Assembly (NCBI GenBank): GCA_049512935.1
Contig: JBEKWR010000006.1
Coordinates: 32,001 to 96,000 of the forward strand
Direction of reading: 5' to 3'
Origin: Candidatus Bathyarchaeia archaeon
GTDB taxonomy: Archaea; Thermoproteota; Bathyarchaeia; Bathyarchaeales; Bathycorpusculaceae
Length of the DNA stretch: 64,000 nucleotides
Position numbers and translations under genes: made by a program. Of this stretch, positions 14,206 through 16,713 are shown one piece after another (position 1 is the stretch's first letter; every line of letters starts with the position of its first letter). The notes beneath the pieces are model-generated. The model made no database searches. It had not been told where the DNA came from and saw only the letters and a list, made by a program, of their open reading frames with translations.

Positions 14206-16713
14206 ATGAGCAAACCAGAAGCCCCAAAACAACCCGAAACCCAAAAACCAGAAGAACTGCGGATCGGCGTTTTCATCTGCCACTGCGGCATGAACATCGC
14301 AGGAACCGTGGACGTACCATCAGTCGCCGAGTACGCAAGAACCATACCCGACGTAGTCTACGTTAAAGAAAACCGCTACACCTGCGCTGACCCGGGACAA
14401 GAAGAAATCAGAAAAGCAATAAAAGAACAAAAATTGAACCGTGTCGTCGTAGCCGCTTGTAGCCCAAGGATGCATGAGCCAACATTTCGGAAAACCGTAA
14501 GTGAAGCAGGGTTAAATCCCTATGTGTTTGAAATGGCGAACATACGCGAGTTCGCTTCTTGGTGCCATCCCAATGCTCCAAAAGAAGCCACAGCAAAAGC
14601 AAAAGATATCGTAAGGATGGCTGTCGCCAAGGCGAGGCTGCTTAAGCCTCTTGAAACCATGGAGGTTCCTGTAACCAAAAACGCCTTGGTTATCGGCGGC
14701 GGCATTGCCGGCATCAACTCCGCTCTGGATTTGGCGAATATGGGGTTCCAAGTATACCTTGTCGAGAAGAACACGAGCATAGGAGGACACATGGCACAGC
14801 TCGACAAGACTTTTCCGACTTTGGATTGCAGCATATGAATTGAAGGACCTAGGATGGTGGAGGTAAATCGCCATCCTAAGGTCCAAGTAATAACCAATGC
14901 GGACATCCTCAGTGTGGAGGGGTTTGTAGGCAATTTCAAAGTTAAGGTCCGCAAGAACCCAAAGTACGTTGATGCCAAAAAATGTACTGGCTGCGGGGAA
15001 TGCAAAGACGCCTGCCCAATAGAATATCCCAATGAGTGGGATATGAACTTAGGCGTAAGAAAAGCCATCTCCATTCCGTTTGACCAAGCAGTGCCTCTGA
15101 TCTACTCGATAAACAGGGATTACTGCATAGAGTGCTTCAAATGCGTGGATGCCTGTGGTGCGCGTGAAGCCATCAACTTTGACCAAAAGCCCGAAGAAGT
15201 TGAATTGGACGTTGGAGCAATCATTGTAACAACGGGTTGTGACATTTATCTACCATATGATGACGCCACGTACGGCTATGGAAGATACGATAACGTAGTT
15301 ACAGCTTTGGAGTTTGAGAGACTCATCACAGCGGGCGGTCCAACAAGTGGACACGTAGTCCGCTCATCCGATGGAAAGACACCGAAAAGCGTTGCCATCA
15401 TTCAATGCGTCGGTTCAAGGGACGTAAACAAGTACGAATACTGTTCAGGTTTCTGCTGCATGTATGGGCTCAAAGAAGCCATCCTTCTGAAAGAACATTA
15501 CCATGATGACGTGGAAGTCTACATTTTCTACATGGATATGCGCACTCCCGCCAAAGGTTATGAAGAATTCTATCGACGAGCCCGTGAAAAGGGAATTACC
15601 TTCGTCATGGGAAAGCCGTCCCGAATAATGGAAGACCCAAAGACCAAAAATTTGATTATCCGAGCAGAGGACACGAAGCTGGGGCAGCCCATCGAAGTCG
15701 AAGCGGAGATGGTTGTGTTAAGCACAGCCGCCATACCGAGTAAGGGAGCCGAAGAATTGGCCAGCATCCTCCACATAACGCGAGGGTCAGACGGGTTCTT
15801 CATGGAAAGTCACCCGAAACTCAAACCAATGGACACGCCTATGGACGGAGTATTCCTAGCAGGTGCTTGCCAAGGACCAAAGGACATACCCTACAGCGTA
15901 GCCCAAGGAAGCGGCGCGGCTTCAAGAGCTGCCACCATTCTTTCGCAGCCGAAATGGAAGATAGAACCGATTGTCTCCATCGTTGACGTCGCCAAATGCA
16001 GAAACCCGAAAGCAAAGTGCGGTGTATGCGTGAAAAGCTGCCCCTTCGGAGCCATAACCGCGGTTGAGGGGCAACCAGCCCAGATCAACGCAGCTCAGTG
16101 CCATGGCTGCGGAACATGCGTTGCTGAATGCCCACAAGACGCCATAACCCAGATGCACTTTACGGATGAACAAATAACCTCACAAATCAGAGCCGCGCTG
16201 GAAAGGGACCCTGAAGACATTATACTGACGTTTATGTGTAACTGGTGAGGTTACGCCGGCGCGGACCGAGCGGGGACGAGCCGGCTTGAATACCCTCCGA
16301 CGACGAGGGCTATTCGGGTAATGTGCACAGGACGGGTAGACAGAGACTTCGTCATGGAAGCCTTTAGACTGGGAGCCGGAGGCGTATTGATTACCGCCTG
16401 CCATCTTCCCAACGACTGCCACTACATCTCTGGAAACGTCAGGATGAAAGCGCGCATGGATGCCTTAGCTGGCATGCTTCAAAAGCTTGGATTGAGCCCG
16501 CATAGATTCAGGGTTGAGTACGTTTCGTCAGCTGAAGGAGAGAAATTCGTCAGCATCATCAAGGAAATGACTAGTCAAATGCAAGCTTTAGGCAAAGACA
16601 AGATACTCGCGGAAAACGCAAAGCTTCGACCAACCTTAGAGAACATGCTGAAACGCAAAGCAGCCGCCCCAGCCCCTGCAGCTAAACCCGCCGATCAAGC
16701 ACCCGCAAAGTAG
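14206..16713 (+). CDS. hdrA: Selenoprotein HdrA-MvhD(VhuD) fusion, 835 aa, Sec at residues 211 and 681
   Basis: Three track ORFs share one frame, separated only by TGA 14836-14838 ([20 protein letters not shown]) and TGA 16246-16248 ([18 protein letters not shown]). SD GAGGAG precedes ATG 14206; FAD motif [14 protein letters not shown]; ferredoxin motifs. Confidence 0.93.
14845..14884 (+). promoter_or_regulatory. Stem-loop 6 nt after first in-frame UGA (candidate recoding element)
   Basis: GGACCU-AGGAUGGUG / CGCCAUCCU-A-AGGUCC: 15 bp, one bulged A, 9-nt loop. Confidence 0.65.
16255..16285 (+). promoter_or_regulatory. Stem-loop 6 nt after second in-frame UGA (candidate recoding element)
   Basis: GCCGGC/GCCGGC closing stem, internal tandem GA/GA, GAGCG loop. 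Confidence 0.5.

Follow-up and report, generated by a model that had tools for sequence, protein, structure and literature searches.

Introduction

According to reviews up to 2026, SECIS elements lie in untranslated regions in archaea and eukaryotes and within the coding sequence in bacteria, which bears out the statement of an earlier note on this DNA that characterised archaeal SECIS elements are untranslated. The bacterial SECIS (bSECIS) model, as set out in PMC13188914, comprises a 3–9 nt apical loop on a 4–16 bp upper stem (Fig. 2 legend), a G at one or both of the first two positions of the loop, with G or U as the usual next base, and a loop located 16–37 nt from the UGA. In eukaryotes, the Sec redefinition element (SRE) of SELENON (SEPN1) is described as facilitating Sec insertion. 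According to the earlier note, it begins 6 nt downstream of the UGA, a short spacer comparable to that of the hairpins described below.

For archaea, RNAz applied to Lokiarchaeota coding sequences with 200 nt per side found only elements downstream of genes, and no factor is known to read archaeal SECIS elements. In a 2026 review, archaeal Sec use is confined to Methanococcales, Methanopyrales, and Asgard; Bathyarchaeia are absent from it. Sec machinery with a PSTK-aSelB fusion has been described in Bathyarchaeota (Mukai et al, Front Genet 2022; PMC8762117), in an account that concerns the machinery and in whose main text the word SECIS occurs zero times. In the literature searched, no description of an archaeal in-CDS hairpin of the kind reported here was found.

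Here, we analyse a 64-kb stretch of DNA from a Bathyarchaeia archaeon (the window), which harbours a gene for an HdrA-MvhD fusion selenoprotein. We show that each of its Sec codons is paired with a stable hairpin of its own that begins exactly 6 nt past the codon, and that both hairpins occur only where the codon is UGA. In-CDS recoding signals of this kind have so far been described in bacteria and eukaryotes, and our findings point to one in an archaeon.

Results

A selenoprotein gene close to an archaeal-type Sec machinery

The gene, its Sec codons, and the neighbouring machinery are located as follows.

14206–16713, + strand: HdrA-MvhD (FlpD) fusion selenoprotein gene; 835 codons with two in-frame TGA, stop codon TAG, translated with TGA as U
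14836–14838, + strand: first Sec codon (TGA), canonical HdrA site DCSI-U-I; TGT/TGC at the aligned position in 73 Cys copies from related loci
16246–16248, + strand: second Sec codon (TGA), MvhD site CNW-U-GY; TGA in 13/13 copies with TGA at site 1, Cys codon in the Cys copies
19425–19510, + strand: tRNA-Sec (anticodon TCA); Rfam RF01852, 64.5 bits, and ARAGORN
20065–21396, - strand: SepSecS; Pfam PF05889, 1.8e-116
22128–24323, + strand: PSTK-SelB fusion with archaeal-type SelB C-terminus; Pfam KTI12/PSTK at residues 8–220, GTP_EFTU, D2, and aSelB_III

According to Pfam, the protein combines FAD/pyridine-nucleotide oxidoreductase and 4Fe-4S domains with a subsequent FlpD domain (4.8e-45, residues 674–797). 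Its in-frame TGA codons stand opposite conserved Cys residues of homologues and Sec machinery is encoded in the same window, which identifies it as a selenoprotein HdrA and VhuD (MvhD). Gene callers cut the gene into three. In a phylogenetic tree, it groups with the Bathyarchaeia Cys forms, apart from the bacterial Sec forms. Since UGA terminates 279 of 1013 long ORFs in this genome and is an ordinary stop codon, a discriminating signal is required at the Sec UGAs.

The genes for tRNA-Sec, SepSecS, and the PSTK-SelB fusion lie about 3 kb from the HdrA-MvhD gene. Residues 276–722 of PSTK-SelB align end to end with residues 20–475 of the 482-residue archaeal SelB 4ac9, whereas the alignment with bacterial SelB covers residues 279–591 only (domains I–III), in agreement with the earlier view that this SelB lacks the long bacterial mRNA-binding C-terminus. 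The winged-helix domain of bacterial SelB (PF09107) has no match in the genome (93% complete), and SelA has none at the family cut-off. Among 401 sampled Bathyarchaeia genomes, the eight with this Sec-HdrA are the same eight that carry a close PSTK-SelB fusion.

Each Sec codon is followed by a stable hairpin

Both hairpins and their spacers lie in frame within the gene.

14839–14844, + strand: 6-nt spacer ATTGAA from TGA to hairpin 1; length 6 in 37/37 distinct clade sequences
14845–14884, + strand: hairpin 1; 5' arm 14845–14860, loop 14861–14867, 3' arm 14868–14884, bulged A at 14878
16249–16254, + strand: 6-nt spacer from the second TGA to hairpin 2; variable among relatives at synonymous positions, unlike the constant stem
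16255–16285, + strand: hairpin 2; 6-bp GC stem, 1x1 G/A mismatch, 2 bp, 2x2 GA/GA internal loop, 2 bp, 5-nt loop

The minimum-energy fold of hairpin 1 contains 16 pairs, the last being G-U, and a 7-nt loop, while the centroid fold has 14 pairs and a 9-nt loop; the initial description as 15 bp with a 9-nt loop and one bulged A is thus a fair one. With -24.5 kcal/mol, hairpin 1 lies far below 200 dinucleotide-preserving shuffles (mean -9.88, sd 2.42; z -6.04), none of which is equally stable. This, together with the layout, confirms a strong in-CDS hairpin 6 nt past the first Sec codon. Synonymous-codon shuffling, proposed in the earlier note, was carried out by drawing codons anew from the genome's own usage with the protein unchanged. 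Again, hairpin 1 is significant, with a native energy of -25.8 against a mean of -10.8 (sd 3.3, z -4.57) and 2 of 3000 recoded sequences equally stable. Hairpin 2 departs only moderately from chance (-22.3 kcal/mol, z -2.55; synonymous resampling z -2.8 to -2.9). When the gene is scanned in 60-nt in-frame segments at 30-nt steps, the lowest z belongs to the segment starting at 14836 and the second lowest to the one starting at 16246. Both hairpins fold more stably in the sense than in the antisense direction (-24.5 versus -21.8 for hairpin 1 and -22.3 versus -17.3 for hairpin 2). The two are unrelated and share no loop or stem motif; each keeps the same 6-nt spacing from its own UGA.

The hairpins are absent from Cys copies

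We compared the gene across 80 related genomic loci and the window, which together hold 86 gene copies, 13 with TGA and 73 with TGT/TGC at site 1. Hairpin 1 is present in 13/13 TGA copies and in 0/73 Cys-codon copies. Likewise, the 60 nt after site 1 fold with -20.7 to -27.4 kcal/mol in the TGA copies versus -4.8 to -16.3 in the TGT/TGC copies, and at the 16 pair positions of hairpin 1 the former form 12–16 pairs, the latter 4–11 (median 7). For hairpin 2, all ten Watson-Crick pairs are formed in 13/13 Sec copies versus four to eight in 70 Cys copies. In four loci (L005, L007, L010, and L072), a Sec copy that has the hairpin occurs together with a Cys copy that lacks it. The codons of the stem encode different residues, namely GPRMVEV.RHPKVQV in Sec copies versus GPKMVD..RHPNI.I in Cys copies.

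Occurrence of the same hairpin in Cys orthologues had been named beforehand as the observation that would speak against a recoding role; it was checked and is absent from 73/73 Cys copies. Restriction of the hairpin to UGA copies lends support to the earlier proposal that it may be a recoding signal, either SRE-like or of a new archaeal type.

Metagenomes scanned with a pattern ending at the TGA yielded 80 loci, 78 of them with at least 63 downstream bases, corresponding to 63 distinct downstream sequences. By our own count, 26 of these belong to this clade; 25 carry the full hairpin and one (L182) the inner 11 bp only. Two loci with about 65% protein identity and an identical hairpin (L152 and L153) were excluded from the evidence because they look mosaic, with stretches 100% identical to the window.

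Synonymous sites are constrained in both stems

Aligned by codon, the 13 Sec genes have a mean synonymous diversity of 0.307 overall; it is 0.134 in the 14 codons past the first UGA and 0.063 past the second. The 19 lowest of 816 synonymous-diversity windows all lie next to one of the two UGAs, and the two post-TGA stretches represent the strongest synonymous constraint in the gene; at site 2, low diversity starts about nine codons upstream of the UGA. Synonymous sites are frozen in the stems and variable in spacers and flanks. Thus, variation in spacer 1 among the 37 distinct sequences is limited to the synonymous third base of the Ile codon (T/C/A), and among 20 distinct sequences of hairpin 2 the stem is invariant while the loop varies. 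Judged from these comparisons, synonymous sites and stem-building amino-acid replacements show that both hairpins are maintained by selection at the RNA level.

The covariation analysis suggested in the earlier note did not add to this: among 37 distinct sequences, compensatory change is found in 0/16 pairs of hairpin 1, the shuffle control gives the observed value, eight pairs are invariant, and three show one-sided change only. The support for hairpin 1 as a putative RNA element is therefore conservation and association, not covariation. All hairpin carriers form one clade with 85–93% protein identity, and two changes suffice to explain the Sec label on the tree. Because the carriers all belong to one clade, the link between UGA and hairpin may go back to a single evolutionary event.

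Other Sec-HdrA lineages have short hairpins in the same location. One of these, with a GGTC loop, is Gram-negative bacterial; among others, compensatory changes from lineage to lineage are visible by eye. For a lineage with an ATGGTCG stem (L167, L192, L207, and L172), NCBIfam on neighbour genes and one Atlas look-up gave no assignment to a domain of life.

Search for a distal SECIS

The flank following the gene was examined for an untranslated element.

16714–17114, + strand: 3' flank without detectable SECIS; fold z 0.10, no Rfam SECIS, not alignable

Rfam, searched at the gathering threshold over the window and with E up to 10 over 14000–17300, returned no SECIS family; in the 3' flank, the sole match with E up to 10 is a chance one to an lncRNA. 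The 3' flanks of the 13 loci are not alignable and reveal no conserved 3'UTR element; in three of them (L001, L004, and L008) the tRNA-Sec gene begins about 300 nt or less past the stop codon. Pattern scans of the flanks of the 13 loci with our own scanner, run without a positive control, gave 0 matches for the GAA_A pattern of eaSECIS and one non-conserved match, in L010, for the eSECIS pattern. The L010 match was dropped because the element folds differently in L005 and L072.

Candidate binding partners and further selenoproteins

An extra L7Ae-family gene as candidate binder was not found, two copies being present in sampled Sec-using and non-using genomes alike. A 366-aa ORF at 17115–18215 was considered as a candidate binding protein and rejected, as it has no Pfam match and is absent from the L185 cluster. 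From gene content, no binding partner of the hairpins is evident.

Among the 975 TGA sites across the genome that are flanked by open frame in both directions, fold energy places the two of HdrA-MvhD 5th and 6th. The four sites ranked above them, three on contigs C41 and C45 and one on C7, look non-coding and were discarded, and the scan yielded no further selenoprotein in this genome. Nor is there a TGA in its SelD, NiFe hydrogenase large subunits, or other FlpD genes, and its selenoproteome may perhaps be a single gene. TGA matches suggesting Sec-HdrA in distant PSTK-SelB genomes (G103, G110, G037, and G220) proved to be gene borders.

Sister genomes with the same kind of PSTK-SelB (G394, G217, G229, and G460) encode a Sec-type SelD with UGA at codon 14; searching the family by pattern for further Sec-SelD genes added one new genome only. 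At the SelD UGA, no Sec-specific hairpin was found, the next 60 nt folding with -8.7 to -12.9 in four Sec copies versus -11.3 to -19.6 in four Cys copies. Two distant hairpins of SelD do not reach significance (z -1.4 and -1.2), and nothing is conserved in the SelD flanks. Consequently, the element is gene-specific and cannot be a general SECIS of the system, and Sec decoding here either does not always depend on such a hairpin or uses another signal at SelD.

Discussion

Hairpin 1 as a probable UGA-adjacent recoding element

We consider it likely that hairpin 1 is a UGA-adjacent element promoting Sec decoding of its own UGA in cis. With the UGA in the A site, a helix starting 9 nt after the U of UGA would be positioned at the mRNA entrance of the small subunit, where known read-through and frameshift stimulators are located. 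The eukaryotic SRE likewise lies at the mRNA-entrance position. There, the helix would slow the ribosome or interfere with release factors, and its loop would be exposed at a distance of about 22 nt from the UGA. The PSTK-SelB-bound Sec-tRNA would thereby gain time and possibly a docking site. Whether hairpin 1 would act as a factor-free stimulator or be bound by SelB or an adaptor is a roughly even choice. With no distal SECIS detected and UGA in regular use as a stop in this genome, the hairpins probably also carry the specificity for the two UGAs, as a functional analogue of the bacterial SECIS operating with archaeal machinery.

A sharper version of this explanation, rather than its opposite, is a true SECIS in the bacterial sense, in which PSTK-SelB or an adaptor binds loop or stem and tethers the Sec-tRNA at the UGA. 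Hairpin 1 would suit such binding with its 7-nt loop, a G in the second loop position followed by another, a 16-bp stem, a 22-nt distance, and -24.5 kcal/mol, and both the lack of a detected distal SECIS and the bacterial Sec-HdrA SECIS at homologous codons argue in the same direction. Against it stand the archaeal-like end of SelB and the genome without a detected winged-helix domain, as well as the failure of archaeal SelB to bind its own SECIS in vitro as stated in a review. Moreover, the hairpins have no loop or stem motif in common, hairpin 2 has a variable loop, an additional L7Ae-type protein is lacking, and Sec-SelD has no such hairpin. We regard direct binding as a tentative possibility.

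Similarly doubtful, in our estimate, is a strictly auxiliary role as in the SRE, with specificity residing in a distal or unrecognised SECIS and the hairpins raising efficiency at two UGAs deep in a long, abundant mRNA. The apparent decoding of Sec-SelD without a hairpin in sister genomes would fit such a division of labour, and the 6-nt spacing suits an effect of ribosome geometry better than a docking site. Against it, the 13 3' flanks are unalignable, with the tRNA-Sec gene encroaching on three of them, the flank in the window folds no better than chance and has no Rfam SECIS, pattern scans are negative save for the non-conserved L010 match, and the SelD flanks show nothing conserved either.

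Conservation by itself names no function, and the onset of low synonymous diversity about nine codons before the second UGA could reflect an mRNA structure that serves some other purpose and merely coincides with the Sec codons, for instance a pause that allows cofactor insertion or folding, transcript stability, or processing. We consider this improbable, since two unrelated hairpins both start 6 nt past the only two UGAs of the gene and the Cys copies, same-genome paralogues included, have neither. That the pairing has no RNA function and is a by-product of the protein sequence or nucleotide composition around the active site is highly improbable in view of the synonymous recoding result and of stems frozen at synonymous sites beside variable spacers and flanks, even though the 3' arm lies partly on conserved RHP codons and 4–11 of the 16 pairs already exist in Cys copies.

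Implications

Put most broadly, and speculatively, there may be a Bathyarchaeia family with bacterial-style Sec signals, with a single in-frame hairpin at each UGA and a complete lack of untranslated SECIS elements, read by the ribosome alone or by a PSTK-SelB without the bacterial RNA-binding domain. If so, the position of a SECIS inside or outside the CDS would not be a domain-of-life trait, local signals next to the UGA would have evolved separately in Bacteria, Eukarya (SRE), and Archaea, and the hairpin-free SelD Sec codon would point to a basal SECIS-free mode of Sec insertion in these archaea. The locus is a compact testable case, offering two independent hairpins at fixed spacing and natural Cys controls in the same genomes, and could reveal how archaeal SelB is steered to a UGA without a distal element. 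Further, the hairpin rule could aid the annotation of split Sec genes and provide a minimal cassette with which archaeal hosts could insert Sec.

Comparison with known recoding signals

The cluster of tRNA-Sec, SepSecS, and a PSTK-SelB fusion is the same as in the Bathyarchaeota system described in PMC8762117. With the eaSECIS systems of Methanococcales and Methanopyrus and the eSECIS-like systems of Asgard, the locus shares the selenoprotein families (HdrA and VhuD/MvhD) and the type of machinery. Their elements are untranslated, serve one gene pair each, and carry a GAA_A bulge or an AUGA_GA quartet, whereas the hairpins here lie in frame, one per UGA, with neither motif. Thus, the UTR location, internal GAA_A bulge, and three S-S pairs of eaSECIS are not found in hairpin 1, whose sole irregularity is the bulged A in its 3' arm. 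The AUGA_GA quartet, AAR apical loop, and 3'UTR location of eSECIS-like elements are lacking as well: hairpin 1 contains no ATGA, and hairpin 2 has a tandem GA/GA loop but neither an ATGA nor an AAR loop.

With the SRE of SELENON, as far as described, the hairpins share their nature as coding-region stem-loops just past a Sec UGA. The SRE acts together with a 3'UTR SECIS and SBP2, whereas here no 3'UTR SECIS was detected, the host is an archaeon, and the sampled Sec-using and non-using genomes do not differ in their two L7Ae-family genes.

As in E. coli fdhF and bacterial Sec-HdrA, an in-CDS hairpin with an early loop G directly follows each Sec UGA. In geometry, the locus agrees with all four published rules of the bSECIS model. 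Hairpin 1 has a 7-nt loop (nine in the centroid fold) on 16 bp with one bulge, and hairpin 2 has a 5-nt loop on a stem broken by G/A and GA/GA. The loop of hairpin 1 starts with A-G-G-T, that of hairpin 2 with G-A in the window and with T-T in one variant from a relative. Distance and energy are 22 nt and -24.5 kcal/mol for hairpin 1 and 19 nt and -22.3 for hairpin 2. Under the mechanistic definition, which demands binding by the C-terminal winged-helix domains of bacterial SelB, the hairpins would not be bSECIS elements, as PF09107 has no match in the 93% complete genome and the SelB is of archaeal type. In contrast to bacteria, the host uses PSTK, SepSecS, and an archaeal-type SelB, and the stem is much longer (15–16 bp) with its base at a fixed 6 nt from the UGA. 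Bacterial Sec-HdrA contigs carry a 7-bp hairpin with a GGTC loop on codons homologous to those here. Because the gene groups with Bathyarchaeia Cys forms and not with bacterial Sec forms, this likeness to the bacterial Sec-HdrA SECIS looks convergent.

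Two UGA-linked hairpins in a two-Sec HdrA-MvhD gene

Two independent, selected and UGA-linked hairpins, both with an identical 6-nt spacing, lie within the coding sequence of an HdrA-MvhD/FlpD fusion gene encoded near the Sec machinery:

14206-16713, plus strand: HdrA-MvhD/FlpD fusion gene, 835 residues when TGA is read as Sec
14836, plus strand: first in-frame TGA, at the canonical HdrA site (DCSI-U-I)
14845-14860 and 14868-14884, plus strand: helix of hairpin 1, with a bulged A at 14878 and a loop of 7-9 nt
16246, plus strand: second in-frame TGA, at the MvhD site (CNW-U-GY)
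16255-16285, plus strand: hairpin 2, -22.3 kcal/mol, 6-nt spacer after the second TGA
19425-19510: tRNA-Sec
20065-21396, minus strand: SepSecS
22128-24323: PSTK-SelB fusion

The earlier note had placed a hairpin 6 nt after the first Sec codon and proposed an SRE-like or new archaeal recoding signal. Its description and coordinates are correct: the fold spans 14845-14884 behind the spacer ATTGAA, with a minimum free energy of -24.5 kcal/mol (z -6.04) that none of 200 dinucleotide shuffles reaches. The synonymous-codon shuffling suggested in that note likewise supports hairpin 1. With the protein fixed and codons redrawn from genome usage, folds average -10.8 against -25.8 for the native 60 nt (z -4.57), and 2 of 3000 redrawn sequences are as low. 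Hairpin 2, unrelated in sequence to hairpin 1, scores z -2.55 and, upon synonymous resampling, -2.8 to -2.9. Across the gene, the two lowest z values of the 60-nt resampling scan belong to the windows starting at the two TGAs. Between 150 and 260 nt upstream of that first TGA lie the third-ranked local structure signal of the scan (14626-14685, z -2.8) and another drop in synonymous diversity (codons ~119-134).

Hairpins accompany Sec and are absent from Cys copies

We compared the window with its 80 closest genomic loci, almost all of them annotated as Candidatus Bathyarchaeota or Bathyarchaeia, which yields 86 gene copies (five loci carry two). At the HdrA site, 13 copies have TGA (the window, L001-L011, and L072) and 73 have TGT or TGC. 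Hairpin 1 is present in all 13 TGA copies (60 nt at -20.7 to -27.4 kcal/mol, 12-16 of 16 pairs) versus none of the 73 Cys copies (-4.8 to -16.3 kcal/mol, 4-11 pairs, median 7); the same hairpin in Cys orthologues, named in the earlier note as the result that would refute a recoding signal, is thus absent. Four loci (L005, L007, L010, and L072) combine a Sec copy bearing the hairpin with a Cys copy lacking it, ~2.8 kb apart. Amino-acid changes help to build the stem (GPRMVEV.RHPKVQV in Sec versus GPKMVD..RHPNI.I in Cys copies). The MvhD-site TGA occurs in all 13 Sec copies, as do all ten Watson-Crick pairs of hairpin 2, of which 70 Cys copies form 4-8. Across 20 distinct sequences, the stem of hairpin 2 is invariant, while its loop and the spacer's synonymous sites vary.

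Four loci (L002, L006, L011, and L037) carry this archaeal gene in MAGs labelled as the bacteria Acidoferrum, Limnocylindrales, Sulfotelmatobacter, and Acidiferrales, and are probably mis-binned Bathyarchaeia contigs. In L153 (1085-5673) and L152, a separate HdrA with Sec and hairpin 1 at site 1 precedes a second HdrA-MvhD, in which site 1 is Cys without hairpin and site 2 is Sec with hairpin 2. Stretches 100% identical to the window within ~67-72% overall identity suggest recombination or chimeric assembly in these two loci.

Selection on the RNA

Mean pairwise synonymous diversity among the 13 codon-aligned Sec genes (ungapped columns only, no Met or Trp codons) is 0.307, and falls over 14 codons to 0.134 after UGA1 and 0.063 after UGA2; each of the lowest 19 of 816 diversity windows adjoins one of the two UGAs. 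At the second site, low diversity (16219-16245) starts ~9 codons before the TGA, and the constrained RNA may therefore exceed hairpin 2 as drawn. The covariation sought as a further check was not found within the window's clade: compensatory change occurs in 0 of 16 pairs, and the shuffle control matches the observed value. Since the carriers form one clade, one event may underlie the whole link between UGA and hairpin.

Distribution and origin of Sec-HdrA

We scanned metagenome contigs for 10 residues followed by TGA, leaving the downstream sequence unspecified. Among 100 matching stretches, 80 loci were taken, 2 of them too short, giving 63 distinct downstream sequences. By our count among the matches listed, 26 of these 63 belong to the window's clade and 25 of the 26 carry the full hairpin 1; L182 retains only the inner 11 bp and resembles Cys forms further on. 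The remaining sequences represent different Sec-HdrA lineages, each showing a short hairpin of 7 bp at the corresponding codons (loops GGTC, AGGT, or AGGC), and their stems differ by compensatory changes, as judged by eye. YifB-like and BamD-like neighbours, together with a formate dehydrogenase alpha (FdhA) interrupted at its Sec site in L188, mark one lineage as Gram-negative bacterial, and its hairpin is therefore an ordinary bacterial SECIS. In this bacterial Sec-HdrA contig (L188:11194-12822), splitting by a Sec TGA would account for the FdhA ORF beginning at model position 130.

A tree was built from 123 rows, after collapsing identical ones and removing those with fewer than 430 open codons. 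It joins the window's clade, at 99% support, to the Cys forms of Bathyarchaeia and to another Sec lineage whose domain is undecided. Bacterial Sec forms fall outside this grouping, which makes the hairpin look home-grown rather than imported. Sec-HdrA of the window's type occurs in 8 of 401 sampled Bathyarchaeia genomes (4/40 in the window's genus, 4/12 in its sister genus), and exactly these eight encode a PSTK-SelB that shares 70% identity or more with that of the window.

The Sec system and its other genes

The machinery cluster (19425-24323) is compact and lies ~3 kb from the HdrA-MvhD gene; in the relatives L001, L004, L008, and L185, tRNA-Sec follows the HdrA-MvhD stop by ~230-300 nt. 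It matches the Bathyarchaeota cluster with a PSTK-aSelB fusion already published in PMC8762117. PSTK-SelB residues 276-722 align to residues 20-475 of archaeal SelB 4ac9 (482 residues), and bacterial SelB aligns to residues 279-591 only, in agreement with the earlier observation that the long bacterial C-terminus is missing. A SelA search gave no match above the family cut-off, and L7Ae-family genes number two each in three Sec-using and three non-using genomes. Two tRNA-Cys (GCA) genes lie 3.5 kb apart on the minus strand (4095-4169 and 7655-7729).

UGA is a normal stop codon here, since it terminates 279 of 1013 long ORFs. Among SelD, NiFe hydrogenase large subunits, and other FlpD genes of the window's own genome (G000), no other in-frame TGA was found, so one protein containing two Sec residues may be all that the Sec apparatus serves.

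Sec-type SelD, with UGA at codon 14 (HG-U-SCKLP), occurs in four genomes from the window's family and three distant lineages (loci L256 in G394, L269 in G217, L270 in G229, L274 in G460, and L254, L255, and L257), mostly adjoining PSTK-SelB. Cys SelD is found in G187, G382, G370, and G000 (C11:6313-7191, no in-frame TGA). Within the family, no Sec-specific hairpin follows codon 14: Sec copies (-8.7 to -12.9 over 60 nt) fold no better than Cys copies (-11.3 to -19.6), and neither flank is conserved. Two distant SelD genes have a non-significant helix 6 nt after the UGA (z -1.4 and -1.2). The hairpin is therefore no universal requirement of this Sec system.

No SECIS family matched in the Rfam search. 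The 3' flank of the HdrA-MvhD gene folds like its shuffles (z 0.10), the 3' flanks of the 13 loci are not alignable, and scans for GAA_A-type and AUGA_GA-type patterns, run with scanners lacking a positive control, gave one non-conserved match. In the TGA scan of G000, the lowest fold energies belong mostly to apparently non-coding frames on contigs C41 and C45, which may be contamination of the bin.

Possible mechanism and comparison with known elements

Stable structures at the mRNA entrance of the ribosome favour read-through and frameshifting. When UGA occupies the A site, the helix base would sit at this entrance of the small subunit, and the hairpin could tip competition from the release factor toward PSTK-SelB-bound Sec-tRNA. 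Its loop may in addition dock a factor. By analogy, the hairpins most likely aid Sec decoding through this position.

A full-text search of the main texts of papers found no published SECIS or coding-region hairpin in Bathyarchaeia; in Lokiarchaeota, RNAz over coding sequences gave no such structure. The defining motifs of euryarchaeal and Asgard elements are all absent from our hairpins. The SELENON SRE has a similar position, but its context is missing because no 3'UTR SECIS was detected. Mechanistically the element also differs from a bacterial SECIS, since no SelB winged-helix domain was found in the genome, yet its geometry fits the published bacterial model (PMC13188914), and the loop of hairpin 1 likewise lies ~22 nt from the UGA.
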